DNA of 15,730 nucleotides. Origin: a virus. Taxonomy: Duplodnaviria > Heunggongvirae > Uroviricota > Caudoviricetes. Under the pieces are notes generated by a model. That model did no database searches and had not been told where the DNA came from. It saw nothing but the letters and a program-made list of their open reading frames with translations. Of the stretch, positions 1 to 15,730 are shown one piece after another (positions within the stretch are counted from its first letter, which is position 1; the number at the start of each line of letters is the position of its first letter). The translations under genes were made by a program, and so were the position numbers. Location: IMG/VR virus record IMGVR_UViG_2563366867_000010, one strand, 5' to 3'.

Positions 1-135
1 CTACGAAGACAGCGACCTCCGTCTGGCCGGTTCGGATCCGTACCTCGCGAGGTCTTTCCTCGTTACCAGTGCCGTCACTATGACGGTTAAACAGATGACG
101 ATCAGGGCGATTAACATCGCCTTTTGCTGCTTCAT
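1..135 (-). CDS. hokD: Hok/Gef-family small membrane toxin homolog (HokD/RelF-like); C-terminal region frameshifted, possibly a pseudogene
   Basis: Translation from ATG at 135..133 gives MKQQKAMLIALIVICLTVIVTALVTRKDL, which matches the HokD N-terminus and transmembrane segment as I recall it. AAGGAG lies 9 nt upstream. After codon DL the frame diverges (..ARYGSEPARRRSLSS*), while the conserved Hok tail EVRIRTGQTEVAVF is encoded in the adjacent frame (about 47 down to 4), consistent with a 1-nt deletion at the conserved Cys codon. Stop sits at 3..1, the window edge. Confidence 0.7.
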   Translation of the reverse strand: MKQQKAMLIALIVICLTVIVTALVTRKDLARYGSEPARRRSLSS

Positions 136-310
136 AGCCTGCTTCTCCTTGCCTTTCGGCACGTAAGAGGCTAACCTGCATGTGTTCAGCATGAAATTGG
201 CCTCAGATTAATGTTAAGCGTCTTGCAGGACACGTAATGTTAACTGGGGCTTTTCTCCGTCTGCCTTACGGCAGCATGCCCGAGGCAGACCCCCTCAAGC
301 ACCCGCAGTC

Positions 311-338
311 ATTCTACAGTAAAACCCCGCGCTTTCAA
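311..338 (-). promoter_or_regulatory. Candidate sigma70 late promoter (PR'-like) directly downstream of Q
   Basis: On the minus strand: -35 TTGAAA (338..333, overlapping the Q stop codon), 16-nt spacer, -10 TAGAAT (316..311). Followed by a GNRA-type hairpin (rc of about 262..275, ctgccGTAAggcag). This position matches where lambdoid late promoters and qut sites lie. Confidence 0.4.
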
Positions 339-760
339 TTTCCCGTATGTCCGGAAAACTGACTGACCTGTGCCCCTGATCGTTCACGCTCAACGTATCT
401 GTCCATTTCCAGTTTTATTCCCTGCATAATCAACATCCCCTCAATAACACCTTCAGCTTTTTGCAGTACCCGCCCGGCCCAGCAATCAGAGCGCTCATGC
501 TTACGGCCCAGTCCCATAAGCGTCATCCCGAACACATAATAATCATACAGAAAATCATGCAAATCGCTGTTGTTGACGTTCAGTTGCGCCATGCAATTGC
601 TGATAATCAGCGCATCATCATCGGTACACTGAGGCCGTGATTTAACCTTTGATGGGATCACGCCCTTAAATCCGGCAGCGACGCCGGACCATGCCACACT
701 CTCATGATTATTTACCACCCATGCACCCCATCGGGACAGAACCTGTTGGATATCACGCAT
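335..760 (-). CDS. Phage antitermination protein Q (QuuD/QuuQ-like, lambdoid late-gene regulator)
   Basis: Translation [72 protein letters not shown] closely resembles the E. coli prophage Q antiterminator family from memory. Start chosen at the internal ATG 760 (GGAG 9 nt upstream); the ORF-track start at 784 has no Shine-Dalgarno. Confidence 0.85.
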
Positions 761-838
761 TATTCTGTACTCCGCTGTAACCATACTTTTTCTGATTTGA
801 ATGCTCAGGGGGAAAATGTCTACTGGATATCTCCGGCT

Positions 839-2671: not shown

Positions 2672-4330
2672 TTACTGACTCAGACTGTTTCTGTTTTTCT
2701 GAAGTTGTTGCTTTGCCTGCATGATCTGCCACGACTCACTGCCTTCCGGCACCCCAGACCGGACACCATGAAGCAGGGACAGAGAAAGCGCTTCGGGGGA
2801 TTTTTCCGTCATCTTCTCTGCCCGGCTACGCCCTCTGGCAAACCGGATGAATTTGTGTCTGATGTAATTACTGACCTCCGGGGTGATTTCCATCGGAAAA
2901 CCGCTCAGCCCGTCAGGCCATTCGCCGAACTTCTCCCGGAAAGTGTGAGCGCACCATCCATCGCTGACCGGTCGCCCCAGAGAGGCACGCTGACGCTGAT
3001 AGAATTTGATCTGACTCCACCAGGCCTGTTTGTCGCTTTTGGTGTAAATTTTTTCGTCCTTGCTGAGTTTCCTGATATTGCGGCGGGTATCTGTGTTCAC
3101 ATCCTCACCAGCCAGCGGTTTAAATCCGCATTTCGGACAGACATAAACACCTGCCGGTTTCATGAAATGACACCCCGGACATTCTTTCGGCAGTTTTTCT
3201 TCCCGAATTTCGTTACCACGTGATGATGACACCTGCATCCCGTCGTTTTTGCCGGGCAGTTCGTCATACTCAATATTTTCAGGAAATCCCAGGCGATGAA
3301 CCGTACCGGAATGGTCGAAAATCAGGCATGACTCCTTGCCTGGCGCTGTACGCAATCCTCTCCCAATCGCCTGAAGCCAGCGAATCTCTGATTTTGTCGG
3401 GCGTGCGTAAATGATGCACCGGACATCACTGTCAAATCCCGCCACCAGAACGCCAACGCTGACAATGATTTTCGTCGCTCCCGTTTCAAAACGACTGATC
3501 ATTAACTGACGCTCATCATGTGGCGTTTCAGCAACCATCACCTCTGCGTTAATTCCGGCTTTGTTGAACTGCATGGTCACGAAGCTGGCATGCGTTTTAT
3601 TGACGCAGAACGCCACTGTCGGTAAATCCCTTCCGTTACACAGCCAGTTATCGACAATATCGCCAACCAGATCCGCGCCGCACATAATCTCTGCCAGTTG
3701 TGATTCGTCGTAATCCCTGCCGTACTCCATTGAGACTTTCGTTTTTACACCTTCCAGATCCGGTTTCGTGGGCGCATAAAATTCGTAATTGCTCAGTTCG
3801 CCACGCTGGATCAGTTCCCCTATAGTGGTCGGCTTGAGAAGACGCTGGTAATAACGCCCCAGGAACGATGAAAAGGGTGTACCGGACAACCCAATCACCT
3901 TCACATTTCCCTCTGCAACCAGTCGTTCGATTTCCGTGAGGATGCGGCGCTTACGGAGATGCGCTTCATCAATAATCAGCAGGTCGATATTCTGAGGAAA
4001 ATCACGGCGAATCAGCGTATCCGCACTGGAAATCTGAATCAGTCGTGACGGGTCGTTATTGGGATGAGCACGCCAGATAAAGCTGATTTCATCCCCGGAA
4101 AGCCCGTACTGAACAAAGCGCTGTGCTGTCTGGTTGATCAAAATGGTATAAGGAACGACAAACAGAACGCGCATGCCACGGCTTACCAGACCAGCAGTGA
4201 TGAACGCCGCCAGGCCGGTTTTACCACTCCCTGTAGGCATGTACATCATGAAGGACTGATATGTTTTCCAGTCATGACGCAACATATTCAGCGCACGTTC
4301 CTGAGCAAAATTCGGCTTGATATTCAGCAT
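2672..4330 (-). CDS. Superfamily-2 DEAD/DEAH-box helicase with C-terminal Cys4 zinc ribbon (probable replicative helicase of the prophage)
   Basis: Walker A MPTGSGKT, motif II IIDEAH, motif III SGT, motif VI QAIGRGLR, plus CPGCHF..(10 aa)..CPKCG. GGGAG lies 6 nt upstream of ATG 4330. Confidence 0.85.
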   Translation of the reverse strand: MLNIKPNFAQERALNMLRHDWKTYQSFMMYMPTGSGKTGLAAFITAGLVSRGMRVLFVVPYTILINQTAQRFVQYGLSGDEISFIWRAHPNNDPSRLIQISSADTLIRRDFPQNIDLLIIDEAHLRKRRILTEIERLVAEGNVKVIGLSGTPFSSFLGRYYQRLLKPTTIGELIQRGELSNYEFYAPTKPDLEGVKTKVSMEYGRDYDESQLAEIMCGADLVGDIVDNWLCNGRDLPTVAFCVNKTHASFVTMQFNKAGINAEVMVAETPHDERQLMISRFETGATKIIVSVGVLVAGFDSDVRCIIYARPTKSEIRWLQAIGRGLRTAPGKESCLIFDHSGTVHRLGFPENIEYDELPGKNDGMQVSSSRGNEIREEKLPKECPGCHFMKPAGVYVCPKCGFKPLAGEDVNTDTRRNIRKLSKDEKIYTKSDKQAWWSQIKFYQRQRASLGRPVSDGWCAHTFREKFGEWPDGLSGFPMEITPEVSNYIRHKFIRFARGRSRAEKMTEKSPEALSLSLLHGVRSGVPEGSESWQIMQAKQQLQKNRNSLSQ

Positions 4331-4363
4331 GGTATTCTCCCGATGACAAGGCTGATACAGTGA

Positions 4364-4732
4364 TTACTTAAACCGGGTCGCCCGGATGACATCCACACCA
4401 TCGGCGATATAACGCTGTGGATGTTTGCCATCACGGAGAAAAACAAATCCCGAAATGCCTTCAGGAAGCGCTCGAATTTTCATCAGTGAACGCTGACGGG
4501 GTGATCGGTTATCCACCTCAACTGCGCAACGCTGACCATCGGGAGAAATAACCAGAAGATCGATAAATCCCCTGCGATCACCTTTCAGCCTGACAGTGAA
4601 ACAGCGTTGCAACTCACAGCCCAGAGATTTGATTTTCTTTTGCAGAACGTAGTCGAATGTGACCTTGTCCATTCCATGTCCGAATTCCTCTTCCAGAAGG
4701 TTGATTAGTACCAGTTTCAGTTCAGCGCTCAT
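4364..4732 (-). CDS. Hypothetical protein, possible nuclease-like fold (tentative)
   Basis: 122-aa ORF immediately upstream of the helicase on the same strand. Contains IDLLVISPDGQRCAVEVDNR, loosely reminiscent of a PD-(D/E)xK core but not a clean match. Weak RBS, so the start is uncertain. Confidence 0.5.
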   Translation of the reverse strand: MSAELKLVLINLLEEEFGHGMDKVTFDYVLQKKIKSLGCELQRCFTVRLKGDRRGFIDLLVISPDGQRCAVEVDNRSPRQRSLMKIRALPEGISGFVFLRDGKHPQRYIADGVDVIRATRFK

Positions 4733-6348: not shown

Positions 6349-6759
6349 ATGTTCCAAAAAACTACGCTATCATGCATTGAAGATTTAAAAAATCTTGGCT
6401 CCCTCATTGCTCTTATCGCAAAAGCAGCGCCAGATACAACTCTTGCCAATGATATCGAGTCATGCGCCGGAATGGCGTGGGATATAATAAACAAAGTATC
6501 TCGCACATTATCTTTGTTAATTCATAAACAAAACATTTCTGATTGCCCCCATGAGATCCGCACCCAACGCGAAAGCTGCGGTCTATCCACCGCTGAACTC
6601 GCCACGCTGCTTGGAGTTGATGAAGAAACCATCATCCAGTGGGAGAACGGCAAGGCTGAACCTCTGGCAAGCCAGGTGATTCCTCTGGCAAATATACTTG
6701 ACTGCGATCCGATGTGGTTACTTACAAGTTTCCATTCTGACACGACAAAGGAATCGTAA
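6349..6759 (+). CDS. Hypothetical protein with C-terminal HTH_XRE domain (first gene of the leftward-type early operon)
   Basis: 136-aa ORF with GAGG 10 nt upstream. The C-terminal 55 aa (IRTQRESCGLSTAELATLLGVDEETIIQWENGKAEP..) is a clear XRE-type helix-turn-helix. The N-terminal 80 aa is unrecognised. Confidence 0.7.
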   Translation: MFQKTTLSCIEDLKNLGSLIALIAKAAPDTTLANDIESCAGMAWDIINKVSRTLSLLIHKQNISDCPHEIRTQRESCGLSTAELATLLGVDEETIIQWENGKAEPLASQVIPLANILDCDPMWLLTSFHSDTTKES

Positions 6760-10115: not shown

Positions 10116-10470
10116 CACTACTGCGGCAATCATGAACTACGACCCGAACATGACATTATGCGGCCGCATGGCAAGACAGACGGTTCGTCTGACACTCGGG
10201 CAATGGGAGTACCGCGAAACATTTGAAGTGGACGTTGTCGGCAATCTGACGGGGCTGGATGTAATAACCTGCGCAATTGAAAACCTTTATGAAGAGCTGC
10301 CGTATGAAGAAGCACAGGATGAATATACCGGTGAAACTAACATTATGGCCACAATACAGATCGGTGATCTTGCATGTACGGATGAGGACATGCTCGGCGA
10401 AGCATGGCTGGCAGGTATGCTTATTGCAGCAGAAATTATCAGCATTGAACCAGCAGGAACACTTTCATAA
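10108..10470 (+). CDS. Hypothetical acidic protein
   Basis: 120 aa from ATG 10108 with GGAGG 8 nt upstream. Overlaps the preceding stop by 8 bp. Confidence 0.55.
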   Translation: MNSTTAAIMNYDPNMTLCGRMARQTVRLTLGQWEYRETFEVDVVGNLTGLDVITCAIENLYEELPYEEAQDEYTGETNIMATIQIGDLACTDEDMLGEAWLAGMLIAAEIISIEPAGTLS

Positions 10471-10486
10471 CGGAGATCGCCATCAG

Positions 10487-10711
10487 ATGATTATTTCATT
10501 CACCGATTACGGCGAACAGGCAAAACTGATTATCACCAGTTCCCGCCTGACATTGCGAAAACATAATCGTGTCGTTGATGCGGTACTTCTGTGCACGCCG
10601 GACATCACAGAAAGCCGGAGCGGCTTTTTCCTGGTTAAGTCGTCATTATCAGGAAAAACACGCGACATCCTGCGCGCCTACAAAACAGCAACAAGGGAGT
10701 CTGAACGATGA
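10487..10711 (+). CDS. Hypothetical small protein
   Basis: 74 aa from ATG 10487 with GGAG 11 nt upstream. Its stop overlaps the next start (ATGA). Confidence 0.5.
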   Translation: MIISFTDYGEQAKLIITSSRLTLRKHNRVVDAVLLCTPDITESRSGFFLVKSSLSGKTRDILRAYKTATRESER

Positions 10712-11070: not shown

Positions 11071-12493
11071 TGCCAGTCAGTTAAGCAACTGACTGGCTCT
11101 TTTTCGGGGCTGTGGGGTATTTCCAGGGCCTCTCCTTTACCACTCTCGGGAAGGCCCTTTCCCTTCTTGTCGGTAATTTCACAAGTTGTCCCATACTTGC
11201 AAGATCGCGCATCAGCTCCGGTATACGTCCCGGTGAAGCGCCCTGCAATGTCATCAGCATTCTCATCACCATTCCGCATGATTCTGAGAAACTCAGTTGA
11301 TTCGGCCAGTAACCTTTCAGATGTTCCGCCATTTTAATCATCTGATATCTCACCAGATTATAAGCCAGTAAGACACCCCACAGCTCTTGCTCCACAAGCT
11401 CCGGCTTTTTACTTCTCAGCGTCAGCCTGCTCCGTTGCATCGTCTGTTTTATCTCCCTGTATCCCAGTTCGATTTCCCAGCGATGACTGTACAGATCCCC
11501 CATTTCTCCTCCGGGGAAGCGCATGGCGTCCGTCATCGACGTCAGCAGATGGCAGACTTTTCCTTTGCGCGTCACGGTCAGCAGGCGGGCAGTCACTTCA
11601 TTTCCCAGTCCCGGCCACTTTTTTCGTGCCTGCGGGCTGGTTTTCAGCTTCACCAGATGATCGCCTTTACCCAGTTTTCTGATCTCTTCATATTGCGCTC
11701 CCTTTCTGAGAGGTATCATCCAGTGGCGGTGTTCTCCCGCCAGGCTCCAGGCATTTAACAGTCCCAGTGAGTAATAACCTTTATCCATTAACGTCAGAGT
11801 GTTATCGCCGGTTTGTTCTATAAGTTGCTCAGCAAGCTCATTTTCGCTGTTCTTCATCGTGCCGAAGGCTGCAGCCGTCAGCAGATGGCTGGTCAGTTCC
11901 ATCTGGCAGACCATTTTGACCTGCGGGTAGAGCGCCGGGTTCCCGGCATGTGTCTGGCGGGGGAAGGCTGCATCGTTCTCTGGTGTATCCGGTGTGCGCC
12001 AGAACACACCATCGATGGCCAGCAGGGTCAGGCCGCACCAGTGCGGATGCGGCGTGGCGTTATGCCAGAGCTGCGCTGTTTTCGTGAACACGCGGCGGAC
12101 AGCCTCACTTCCCAGGCGCTGGCGGGCCTGAATAACGGCACTGGGGGCAACGAAGGGGCGATTGCCCGGCAGCATGATGTCCAGGCGATTCACAATCTGG
12201 TGAAGAGGTTCTTTACGCTCAAGCGCCATGCCAACAATACACCAGACCATCATTTCGAGGGGAAGACGGCGCTTGCGTAGCGTTACAGTACCTGATTCGG
12301 CAAGGCAACGAGAGATGAGTTCGGGGTCGAGGTAATCCCCCAGAGAAGTCAGTGGGTTACGCAGAGAATCGTAACGGGATACCAGATCAAGAGCCTGTCC
12401 AATGTGCATAAAAAAATCCGGAAACAAGTGAGCGTTTCCGGATTCTTACACAGCCACTGGATCGGTCAACTGATCCTTAACTGATCGGCATTA
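11068..12493. mobile_element. Insertion sequence IS4, complete copy (1426 bp)
   Basis: Terminal inverted repeats TAATGCCAGTCAGTTAAG (11068..11085) and rc TAATGCCGATCAGTTAAG (12476..12493). A single transposase ORF fills the element. Flanked by a 12-bp direct repeat. Confidence 0.9.
11081..12409 (-). CDS. insG: IS4 transposase (DDE, IS4 family)
   Basis: 442-aa translation beginning [40 protein letters not shown].. matches the IS4 transposase as I recall it. The ORF-track start at 12427 is a TTG; the true ATG is at 12409. Confidence 0.9.
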
Positions 12494-13745: not shown

Positions 13746-15035
13746 ATGAGTAACGCATCATACCCGACAGGCGTTGAAAACCATGGCGGATCACTCCGCA
13801 TATGGTTTCACTATAACGGCAAACGTGTCAGAGAAAACCTCGGTGTTCCTGACACCGCCAAAAACCGGAAGATCGCAGGTGAACTTCGCACTTCCGTTTG
13901 TTTTGCAATAAGAATGGGGAGCTTCGACTACGCCGCGCAGTTCCCTAATTCCCCTAACCTGAAACATTTTGGTCTGGGAAAAAAAGAGATAACCATTAAG
14001 GCACTTTCGGAAAAATGGCTTGAGCTTAAGAAAATGGAAATAACAACAAATGCCATGGTCAGATACAAATCAGCTATCCGAAATTGCCTTGACTGCCTTG
14101 GAGGGAACAAACTGGCATCATCAATTACACAGGAAGATGTTCTCATTTTTCGTAAAGAATTATTAACGGGATATCAGTTGCCAAGAAAAATTCAGAGGAA
14201 GCCTATTAAAGGTCGTAGTGTACCTACTGTAAATAGCTATATGACAATTATCTCCGGGATGTTCCGTTTTGCGGCAAACAATGGGTATATAGGCAAAAAC
14301 CCTTTCAGTGAGCTTCCATCACTGAAAAGAGCGAAAACACCTCCCGATCCACTAACAAAAGATGAGTTTGCCAGACTGATTGATGCGTGCCACCACCAGC
14401 AAACTAAAAATTTCTGGTCGCTGGCTGTATATACCGGGATGCGGCATGGCGAACTGTGTGGGCTGGCATGGGAGGATATCGATCTGGAAGCGGGTACCTT
14501 GACCGTCAAAAGGAATTACACTCAGACAAAGGAATTTACACTACCCAAAACAGATGCAGGAACAAACAGGGTAATACAACTCATACAGCCAGCAATTGAC
14601 GTATTAAAAAATCAGGCGACATTAACCAGGCTTGGTAAACAATATCAGATAGAAGTAAAGCTGCGAGAGTATGGCCGGACAAGCACTCACTCATGCAGCT
14701 TTGTTTTCAATCCTCAGATATTAGATCGCACAGGTAACTCAGGAGTTCATTATGCCGTAACATCCATCAACAGAACATGGGAATCTGCATTAAAACGAGC
14801 AAAAATTCGCCATAGAAAAGCGTATCAGTCTCGGCATACTTATGCTTGCTGGGCTTTAACTGCCGGAGCAAATCCAAACTTCATAGCCAACCAGATGGGA
14901 CATGCGAATGCCCAGATGGTTTACAATGTTTACGGTGCATGGATGAAAGACAATAACCAGTCCCAGGTAGAAGTACTAAACAGAAAGCTATGTACTTATG
15001 TCCCACAGGTGCCCCAACGACTAAACAAAGCATAG
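13746..15035 (+). CDS. int: Tyrosine recombinase / phage integrase (lambda Int family)
   Basis: 429 aa with GGAGG upstream. C-terminal catalytic-domain signatures: R in YTGMRHGELCGLAWEDID, H..R in SRHTYACWALTAGANP, GHANAQMVYNVYGAWM with the presumed catalytic Tyr. Lies next to xis at the prophage end. Confidence 0.9.
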   Translation: MSNASYPTGVENHGGSLRIWFHYNGKRVRENLGVPDTAKNRKIAGELRTSVCFAIRMGSFDYAAQFPNSPNLKHFGLGKKEITIKALSEKWLELKKMEITTNAMVRYKSAIRNCLDCLGGNKLASSITQEDVLIFRKELLTGYQLPRKIQRKPIKGRSVPTVNSYMTIISGMFRFAANNGYIGKNPFSELPSLKRAKTPPDPLTKDEFARLIDACHHQQTKNFWSLAVYTGMRHGELCGLAWEDIDLEAGTLTVKRNYTQTKEFTLPKTDAGTNRVIQLIQPAIDVLKNQATLTRLGKQYQIEVKLREYGRTSTHSCSFVFNPQILDRTGNSGVHYAVTSINRTWESALKRAKIRHRKAYQSRHTYACWALTAGANPNFIANQMGHANAQMVYNVYGAWMKDNNQSQVEVLNRKLCTYVPQVPQRLNKA

Positions 15036-15079: not shown

Positions 15080-15730
15080 ATGAACAATATGAACGTAATT
15101 ATTGCCGATGACCATCCGATAGTCTTGTTCGGTATTCGCAAATCACTTGAGCAAATTGAGTGGGTGAATGTTGTCGGCGAATTTGAAGACTCTACAGCAC
15201 TGATCAACAACTTGCCGAAACTGGATGCACATGTGTTGATTACCGATCTCTCCATGCCTGGCGATAAGTACGGCGATGGCATTACCTTAATCAAGTACAT
15301 CAAGCGCCATTTCCCAAGCCTGTCGATCATTGTTCTGACCATGAACAACAACCCGGCGATTCTTAGTGCGGTATTGGATCTGGATATCGAAGGGATCGTG
15401 CTGAAACAAGGTGCACCGACCGATCTGCCGAAAGCTCTCGCCGCGCTGCAGAAAGGGAAGAAATTTACCCCGGAAAGCGTTTCTCGCCTGTTGGAAAAAA
15501 TCAGTGCTGGTGGTTATGGTGACAAGCGTCTCTCGCCAAAAGAGAGTGAAGTTCTGCGCCTGTTTGCGGAAGGCTTCCTGGTGACCGAGATCGCTAAAAA
15601 GCTGAACCGCAGTATTAAAACCATCAGTAGCCAGAAGAAATCTGCGATGATGAAGCTGGGTGTCGAGAACGATATTGCTCTGCTGAATTATCTCTCTTCT
15701 GTGACGTTAAGTCCGGCAGATAAAGACTAA
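15080..15730 (+). CDS. rcsB: Response regulator RcsB (Rcs phosphorelay, LuxR/FixJ-type HTH)
   Basis: 216-aa translation MNNMNVIIADDHPIVLFGIRKSLEQIEWVNVVGEFEDSTALINNLPKLDAHVLITDLSMPGDKYGDG..LSPADKD matches E. coli RcsB essentially end to end as I recall it. Receiver domain with phospho-acceptor Asp in LITDLSMPG; C-terminal LuxR-type HTH. Confidence 0.95.
   Translation: MNNMNVIIADDHPIVLFGIRKSLEQIEWVNVVGEFEDSTALINNLPKLDAHVLITDLSMPGDKYGDGITLIKYIKRHFPSLSIIVLTMNNNPAILSAVLDLDIEGIVLKQGAPTDLPKALAALQKGKKFTPESVSRLLEKISAGGYGDKRLSPKESEVLRLFAEGFLVTEIAKKLNRSIKTISSQKKSAMMKLGVENDIALLNYLSSVTLSPADKD

Follow-up and report, generated by a model that had tools for sequence, protein, structure and literature searches.

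[quoted passage not shown] The locus is an ordinary decayed copy of a known toxin-antitoxin system, and its product has already been deposited as hokD.

Identification of a frameshifted hok gene

The list of open reading frames (ORFs) and their translations placed a Hok toxin ORF on the minus strand of this region, adjoining the gene for the Q antiterminator. The features of the toxin gene are as follows.

1–135 (-): hok ORF as it stands, with ATG at 135–133, 44 codons and TAG at 3–1
42–53 (-): site of a 1-nt deletion, the T of the Cys31 codon TGC, lost between positions 49 and 48 (alignment with intact relatives)
2–46 (-): what is left of the Hok periplasmic domain, readable in the adjacent frame as EVRIRTGQTEVAVFV (translation)

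The translated ORF reads MKQQKAMLIALIVICLTVIVTALVTRKDL, then departs from the family consensus and continues as ARYGSEPARRRSLSS; residues 1–29 are the Hok N-terminus and transmembrane helix, residues 30–44 are out-of-frame, and the Shine-Dalgarno sequence AAGGAG at 150–145 (-) is intact. The first-pass annotation had described just this state of the 5' part of the gene, and it was also right that a single base is missing at the conserved Cys codon and that the tail can still be read in the next frame. When the site was aligned with intact relatives (E. coli KY174 (L002), phage PhiR12_3, hokW of phage 933W (L003) and several chromosomal copies), the window read GACCTC-GCGAGG and the relatives GACCTCTGCGAGG; a T-bearing allele would be expected to read CTCTGCGAG at window 48/49. 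The last six hok codons and the 3' untranslated region with the fbi element lie beyond the window start and are visible in two assemblies identical to the window (L007 and L008). The Pfam profile HOK_GEF (PF01848) matched the window ORF at profile positions 1–24 of 42 only (E = 4.7e-8, 32.9 bits), whereas an intact relative was matched at all 42 positions (E = 4e-23, 81 bits). [quoted passage not shown] E-V/L-A-A/V). Lacking the full domain, the window ORF is a pseudogene of this family.

To place the gene within the family, a repaired toxin was composed by restoring the T and taking the C-terminal continuation from L008. In direct protein alignment its identity was 100% with 933W HokW, 98% with the KY174 copy, 92% with K-12 HokD (47 of 51 residues), 80% with HokC and ~35% with HokA, HokB and HokE. 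NCBIfam could not separate HokD from HokW, because no equivalog was reached at cut-off by any HokD/HokW-type protein, the intact ones included, but the direct alignment did separate them. Judged by that alignment, hokW is the accurate name and "HokD-like", as the gene had been called in the first-pass annotation together with a call for such an alignment, was a fair first guess: the HokD/HokW type was recognised correctly, while the closest relative is HokW. The complete identity of the repaired protein with HokW fits a recent inactivation, as had been proposed. A tRNA scan of the window found no tRNA, and an exact-product search found no record of the 44-aa hok product.

Evidence that the deletion is real and inherited

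The frameshift had initially been left open as either a recent inactivation or a sequencing error, and the second reading, in which the gene is truly an intact hokW misread in sequencing or assembly, has next to no probability left. The exact 63-aa mok-hok product was seen on 57 contigs and has index entries in 102 blocks of the assembly collection; the contigs came from NCBI, ENA, JGI and UniRef sources and several projects, and the carriers included a 5.24-Mb complete chromosome (OZ040522.1), a gut metagenome scaffold and KTE182/UMEA isolates. This product is the one already deposited, as "protein hokD" of E. coli UMEA 3215-1 and KTE182. In addition, L008 was 100% identical to the window over 6192 nt, base for base, and L007 was 100% identical over 5798 nt; furthermore, the context of the deletion site is not a homopolymer. 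What speaks for an error is the narrow distribution of the allele: of 5,426 complete RefSeq E. coli genomes, the 60 that matched best all lacked it (best match, 97.4% over 310 nt), and all of their full-length matches were one or two bases longer than the query, and a 23-mer spanning the deletion had no match in the GTDB representative genomes. Because the product recurs on 57 contigs and L007 and L008 are identical to the window, a one-off sequencing error is excluded for practical purposes, and the deletion is real and inherited.

Read from the sequence, the deletion makes a perfect palindrome, ACCTCGCGAGGT (window 53–42), out of the quasi-palindrome ACCTCTGCGAGGT, and this signature suggests that it may have arisen by quasi-palindrome correction, that is, by a template switch. 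Programmed frameshifting or slippage was also weighed and set aside, since the site is neither slippery nor homopolymeric.

A second, independent knock-out of the same gene was found in a sister lineage, in which a +T frameshift at codon 9/10 is annotated as "frameshifted" (complete genomes L001, L017 and L018 were examined); three further genomes gave the same one-base-longer match as this +T lineage.

Elements of the hok mRNA and its antisense RNA

Intact cassettes of this family produce a stable hok mRNA constitutively from a promoter of their own; pairing of its 5' tac with its 3' fbi element keeps this mRNA closed, and Hok can be translated only if the overlapping mok frame is translated too. 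Sok, a short and unstable antisense RNA, base-pairs with the region around the mok start, which is thereby blocked, and RNase III cleavage follows; once Sok is gone, for example upon prophage induction, the 51-aa membrane toxin is made. No sok or mok had been identified at first, and both can now be placed in the window.

1–192 (-): mok reading frame, 63 aa, with ATG at 192–190, in frame with hok and hence also frameshifted
130–304 (-): 5' leader of the hok mRNA, with tac, the Sok target region and the mok and hok translation initiation regions
184–254 (+): putative gene for the antitoxin, Sok antisense RNA, with coordinates taken over from 933W sokW (annotated, 71 nt)
149–177 (+): candidate Sok promoter, TTGCCT (149–154), 17-nt spacer, TAACCT (172–177)

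The Rfam model RF01794 ("sok") matched positions 130–304 over its whole length (1–157) with 103.3 bits (gathering threshold 59) and E = 6e-23. The match is on the same strand as hok and reaches as far as its ATG, and the model therefore describes the leader that contains the Sok gene. The mok ATG lies 57 nt upstream of hok and adds 19 codons with the same stop, the geometry of the annotated mokW of 933W and mokC of K-12; the 19-codon extension had thus been suspected with good reason of being mok-like. Because the alignment of the window lineage with 933W is gap-free here, mok can be assigned to the ORF from 192 and sokW (L003 1634–1564) maps to window 184–254 on the plus strand. In 933W, sokW begins 49 nt upstream of the hokW ATG, and K-12 sokC likewise begins 49 nt upstream of its hok ATG. 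In the predicted fold of the Sok RNA, an unpaired 5' tail is followed by a long hairpin, and the end is rich in U (-24.9 kcal/mol, z = -4.05, with no shuffled sequence folding as well).

An antisense Sok-like promoter had been suggested for the interval 136–330, and the TTGCCT-17-TAACCT site falls within it, 7 nt before the mapped Sok 5' end and identical in 933W hokW/sokW. It is a weak site, the -10 having only 3 of 6 consensus bases, and it fell below the threshold of the consensus scan; we infer it from its position, its conservation and the 933W annotation.

The tac element, GGGTGCTTGAGG, is at window 304–293 (-), and fbi, CCTCAACGCACCC, lies outside the window at position 6264 of L008. 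When the 392-nt full-length hok mRNA taken from that assembly was folded, its 5' GGGUGCUUGAGG paired with its 3' CCUCAACGCACCC in the minimum free energy (MFE) structure (MFE -165 kcal/mol, z = -5.8), and such tac-fbi closure is typical of hok mRNAs. All of the RNA-level parts can thus be recognised by prediction and homology, namely the -10, tac, the mok start, the Sok gene with its promoter and the hok Shine-Dalgarno sequence, and Sok RNA is probably still made. A hairpin followed by a T-run is found ~70 nt after fbi and may end the transcript before the restriction-modification (RM) genes.

The hok promoter and its junction with Q

The gene upstream of hok and the promoter between the two are as follows.

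335–784 (-): Q antiterminator gene, Q933W/Q21 family (PF06530, full profile)
311–338 (-): promoter of the hok mRNA, with -35 TTGAAA (338–333), 16-nt spacer, -10 TAGAAT (316–311) and predicted start near 304

That hok directly adjoins Q, as first annotated, was borne out by the match of the 335–784 ORF to PF06530 (profile 1–118 of 118, E = 2.5e-45) and to the Q21 structures PDB 6P18 and 6JNX (E = 5.5e-8). The window Q has 64–67% amino acid identity to Q of Stx phages such as 933W, and its homologue in relatives is annotated "antiterminator Q family protein".

The sigma70 promoter proposed between the two genes is real to the extent that TTGAAA-16-TAGAAT matches the consensus at 10 of 12 positions and is one of only two scan sites in the first 900 bases, but the hok cassette is the source of its -10 and start site, which does not agree with its designation as a candidate late promoter. 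The sequence from GTAGAAT through the leader and ORF to fbi is common to hok cassettes in four unrelated contexts, 933W (L003) and the chromosomal copies L014, L015 and L016, which diverge after fbi. Upstream of this shared sequence, three of the four keep a conserved segment of their own whose -35 is poor (TTTGCG or TTGCGG), while the Q-linked copies carry Q-side DNA with TTGAAA in place of that native segment, so that the sequence upstream of GTAGAAT is specific to the Q-hok junction; TTGAAA has 5 of 6 consensus bases versus 3 of 6 for the native TTGCGG. The hok promoter is, as these alignments have it, a hybrid in which the hok cassette supplies the -10 and start site and the Q-side flank a better -35. 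Genomes with the Q tail and -35 segment but no hok, which might show a pre-insertion state or another type of PR', were sought and not found; the segment occurred only in 28 complete genomes, all with the Q-hok junction.

The Q stop codon TGA (337–335) falls within the hok promoter's -35 hexamer. This overlap parallels that of 933W PR' with the end of Q.

From this arrangement, hok should be expressed from its own promoter in the lysogen. Early read-through from PR through Q into hok possibly adds to this, given that no terminator was predicted between Q and hok, whereas Q-modified late transcription should not be the source of hok expression.

Position of the cassette relative to PR'

The annotated pR' of 933W (TTTACG-16-TATCAT) shares sequence with the end of the Q gene, and beyond it come qut and a terminator. 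The distance from this promoter down to tR' is ~258 nt in Sp5, and the spacing of PR' determined by dRNA-seq and Term-seq matches this value (PMC7547250). The window Q resembles 933W Q up to the YVERE codons and then diverges. A homologue of the 933W pR'-qut-terminator module, ~90% identical, was located by homology outside the window, in assemblies identical to it and in phage PhiR12_3, in each case after hok and the RM genes.

L008 10190–10242: 933W pR'-qut-terminator homologue
L007 9737–9789: 933W pR'-qut-terminator homologue
PhiR12_3 (L004) 11759–11811: 933W pR'-qut-terminator homologue

In the window lineage this distal PR' module reads TTTACA-16-TATCAT and lies ~3.9–4.3 kb downstream of Q, beyond hok and an hsdM/hsdS-like pair (N6-methyltransferase and specificity subunit). 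In L008 it is followed by a match to STnc100 RNA, and in L006–L008 a nanS-p-like esterase gene comes next; in 933W such a gene follows stx. By alignment with 933W, the ~43 nt between the YVERE codons and pR' are replaced by ~4 kb of cargo, and Q appears with a new C-terminal tail. Since the PR' homologue lies downstream of hok and the RM pair, the cassette is placed between Q and PR'. Being upstream of PR', the apparent insertion site is not the slot occupied by Stx and other morons, to which hok had first been assigned: genes of a Q-dependent late operon lie downstream of PR', qut and tR', and hok does not. The statement that hok sits between Q and the lysis genes is true only in a loose sense. 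The opposite-strand coding sequence annotated after hok in relatives was not retained as a real gene, as it coincides with an array of heptamer repeats and is probably an artefact.

Consequences of the deletion and alternative explanations

As translated, the deletion swaps the 22-residue periplasmic domain for 15 unrelated, arginine-rich residues, and because this replaces the whole domain, the toxin is most likely dead or strongly attenuated. There is a rather small chance that the 44-aa product still works as a small membrane protein, be it as an attenuated toxin or with a new activity. The N-terminus, transmembrane helix, Shine-Dalgarno sequence and coupling to mok are all intact and the ORF ends at a proper stop, so that some residual membrane activity may persist by analogy with other Hok proteins: HokC toxicity is described as dependent also on transmembrane residues (PMC8509063), and Hok of R1 with the single substitution C31A or E32A was still toxic on overexpression, although a truncated construct was non-toxic (bioRxiv 10.1101/2025.08.07.668861). 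Those are single substitutions, however, and here the entire domain is exchanged; PMC8509063 also cites work in which the periplasmic domain of Gef/HokC was proposed as the toxic domain and its replacement with PhoA gave a non-toxic protein. The four arginines in a tail that has to cross the membrane would also disfavour the correct topology. Moreover, the sister +T frameshift at codon 9/10 destroys the transmembrane helix too, which indicates that loss of function is tolerated, and the deletion allele occurs only in near-identical prophage copies, which give no evidence of selection on the new tail. We therefore regard the gene as a decayed toxin gene.

As to transcription, it is very improbable that TTGAAA-16-TAGAAT is, or doubles as, a Q-dependent late promoter and that hok is a late-operon moron like stx. 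The position of the promoter across the Q stop, much like that of 933W pR' at the end of Q, and the lack of a predicted terminator between Q and hok would suit such a role, as would the appearance of HokW protein after induction of the Sp5 prophage (PMC8621323). The same study found, however, that Sp5 hokW mRNA is not induced by mitomycin C and that loss of Sok triggers HokW production. Moreover, the -10, start site and whole transcribed region are those of the hok cassette, unchanged in copies far from any Q; the site does not resemble 933W pR'/qut in sequence; within the first 35 bases of the transcript no TA dinucleotide occurs and hence no -10-like sigma-dependent pause element; and the ~90% identical pR'-qut-terminator module stands 3.9–4.3 kb downstream in the same lineage and in PhiR12_3. 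Transcription of hok from its own promoter is thus the preferred reading, and under it the locus might still be kept for its intact parts, either as an orphan Sok acting against HokW/HokD-type mRNAs of other prophages or plasmids or as a strong hybrid promoter driving downstream genes. We consider this unlikely. In its favour, Sok retains an intact gene, promoter and fold, related hok loci of 80–99% nucleotide identity number up to 9 per E. coli genome (median 2), the fused -35 is closer to consensus than the native one, and two independent toxin knock-outs have left the leader untouched; but the inactivation looks recent and the intact flanks have perhaps simply not yet decayed, the 5' recognition tail of Sok differs from that of 933W sokW at 3 positions, which makes cross-reaction uncertain, and the hairpin and T-run after fbi may stop the transcript before it reaches the RM genes. 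A more specific scenario, distinctly improbable in our estimation, is that fusion to the near-consensus -35 of Q upset the toxin/antitoxin balance and selected for loss of hok (delta-T here, +T in the sister lineage), with the surviving Sok left as an orphan antitoxin. If this were true, the orphan Sok could blunt the HokW/HokD-type toxins of co-resident or incoming Stx-like prophages, as a form of anti-addiction or anti-lysis immunity.

Significance

The locus should be annotated as a hok/mok/sok cassette of the hokW type whose toxin gene is a frameshifted pseudogene, and not as a late-promoter moron; it matters little otherwise. Beyond the textbook system it offers two minor points. Accessory cargo, here hok/sok together with a restriction-modification pair, can lodge between Q and PR' and split an overlap that is tight in 933W, leaving a hybrid hok promoter at the junction. 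Furthermore, hok has been knocked out twice independently in one prophage family, in agreement with the decay of chromosomal hok loci, which is reportedly a known pattern (Pedersen and Gerdes are said to have described it in 1999).

Comparison with known systems

The closest known system is hokW-mokW-sokW of 933W/Sp5, a validated toxin-antitoxin pair in which HokW is made post-induction once SokW disappears and roughly doubles the release of Sp5 phage (PMC8621323). Both cassettes are prophage-borne and share ~92.5% nucleotide identity, with the same -10, tac, mok start, Sok position and length, and fbi. The 933W/Sp5 cassette, however, lies near the right end of the prophage, is intact and has its own TTTGCG-type -35, whereas the window cassette abuts Q, has the foreign -35 TTGAAA and carries the 1-nt deletion in Cys31; the Sok 5' tail and its target also differ at 3 positions between the two.

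K-12 hokD (relF) of the Qin prophage is likewise prophage-borne and shares the 3' fbi region, but it is homologous only from ~15 nt ahead of the ATG, has no mok/sok leader and comes after relBE; the window copy, in contrast, has the full leader and a broken ORF. The C-terminal residues are VDYESEK in the repaired window toxin and TAYEPEE in HokD. With K-12 hokC (gef)-mokC-sokC and R1 hok/sok the window cassette shares the placement of mok 57 nt upstream in frame and of the Sok 5' end 49 nt upstream, although the leaders have diverged further and the genomic surroundings are not the same; K-12 hokC owes its disruption to a nearby IS186, the window copy to a frameshift. Stx-type morons and the present cargo are alike in being accessory genes of a 933W-like prophage that occupy the interval from Q to the nanS-p/lysis genes. 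The difference is that stx lies downstream of PR' and tR' and depends on Q antitermination, whereas in the window lineage the PR' homologue comes only after hok and the RM genes.

Truncation and variation of the hok cassette

Base 1 of the window coincides exactly with the stop-codon end of the frameshifted hok ORF, and because the window starts at this codon, it lacks VDYESEK, the genuine C-terminal residues of Hok, together with the 3' hairpin and fbi (the 3' mRNA element that pairs with tac). In L008, one of the two assemblies identical to the window that continue past base 1, the hok 3' hairpin holds a run of nine G residues, whereas relatives have GGGGGAG. An independent frameshift, a +T at codon 9/10 (GTTAATCGCC to GTTAATTCGCC), was found in hok of the sister prophage lineage (L001, L017 and L018), the sequence of which also differs in the Sok target region directly after the mok ATG. 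The approximately 12 bases following the mok start codon were the most variable stretch of an otherwise conserved leader (variants CTGAACACATGC, TCACACAACCGT, ACTTACAAACTT and CTTTGCACATGT), and their positions overlap both the start site of Sok and its 5' end; this variability may reflect diversifying Sok/hok pairing specificity.

Hok features
L001 3666-3822: sister-lineage hok with +T frameshift
L017 and L018 966-1122: sister-lineage hok with +T frameshift
Window 175-189 (-): variable bases after the mok ATG; equivalent position in L001, phage PhiR12_3 (L004) and chromosomal cassettes L014-L016

Heptamer array downstream of hok

Outside the window, shortly past base 1, a perfect heptanucleotide array, (CCAGCGA)n, is flanked by the hok 3' end on one side and an hsdM-like methyltransferase gene on the other. 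Copy number ranged from 10 to 120 and differed between otherwise near-identical prophages; in L007, the second identical assembly, an ATG lies upstream of the array and its frame runs through the repeats into the methyltransferase. The array may be a phase- or length-variable switch for the restriction-modification genes. Opposite-strand CDSs annotated after hok ('hypothetical protein', 'YXWGXW repeat-containing protein', 'Drug resistance transporter EmrB/QacA') overlie the array and are probably annotation artefacts from the open frame of its 21-nt periodicity.

(CCAGCGA)n arrays
L008 6398-6492 and 6858-6952
L007 6400-6518
L006 (relative) 6400-6469
L002 (E. coli KY174) 4007-4573
L001 4008-4847
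L004 7967-8540

Opposite-strand CDSs after hok
L001 3995-4858 (-)
L002 3896-4588 (-)
L004 7938-8555 (-)
L018 1295-1402 (-)

Window extent and the displaced late promoter

Window 11081-12427 (-): IS4-family transposase (Nterm_IS4 + DDE_Tnp_1)
Window 13746-15035 (+): tyrosine integrase
Window 15080-15730 (+): response-regulator/LuxR-type gene

The transposase marks an insertion in the early or accessory region of the prophage. The response-regulator/LuxR-type gene that follows the integrase is probably host flank, so that the window would extend across the prophage, with the attachment-site end on one side and Q-hok on the other; a search within the window found no tRNA gene. The closest complete genomes covered only 84-91% of the window, possibly owing to the IS4-family insertion.

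A PR'-qut-terminator module of the 933W type lies ~4 kb downstream of Q and does not overlap it, and in L008 the module is followed by an STnc100 match (10369-10585; Rfam, 150 bits). Inserted cargo now separates Q from its promoter.

933W-type PR'-qut-terminator modules
L008 10190-10242
L007 9737-9812
L004 11759-11834
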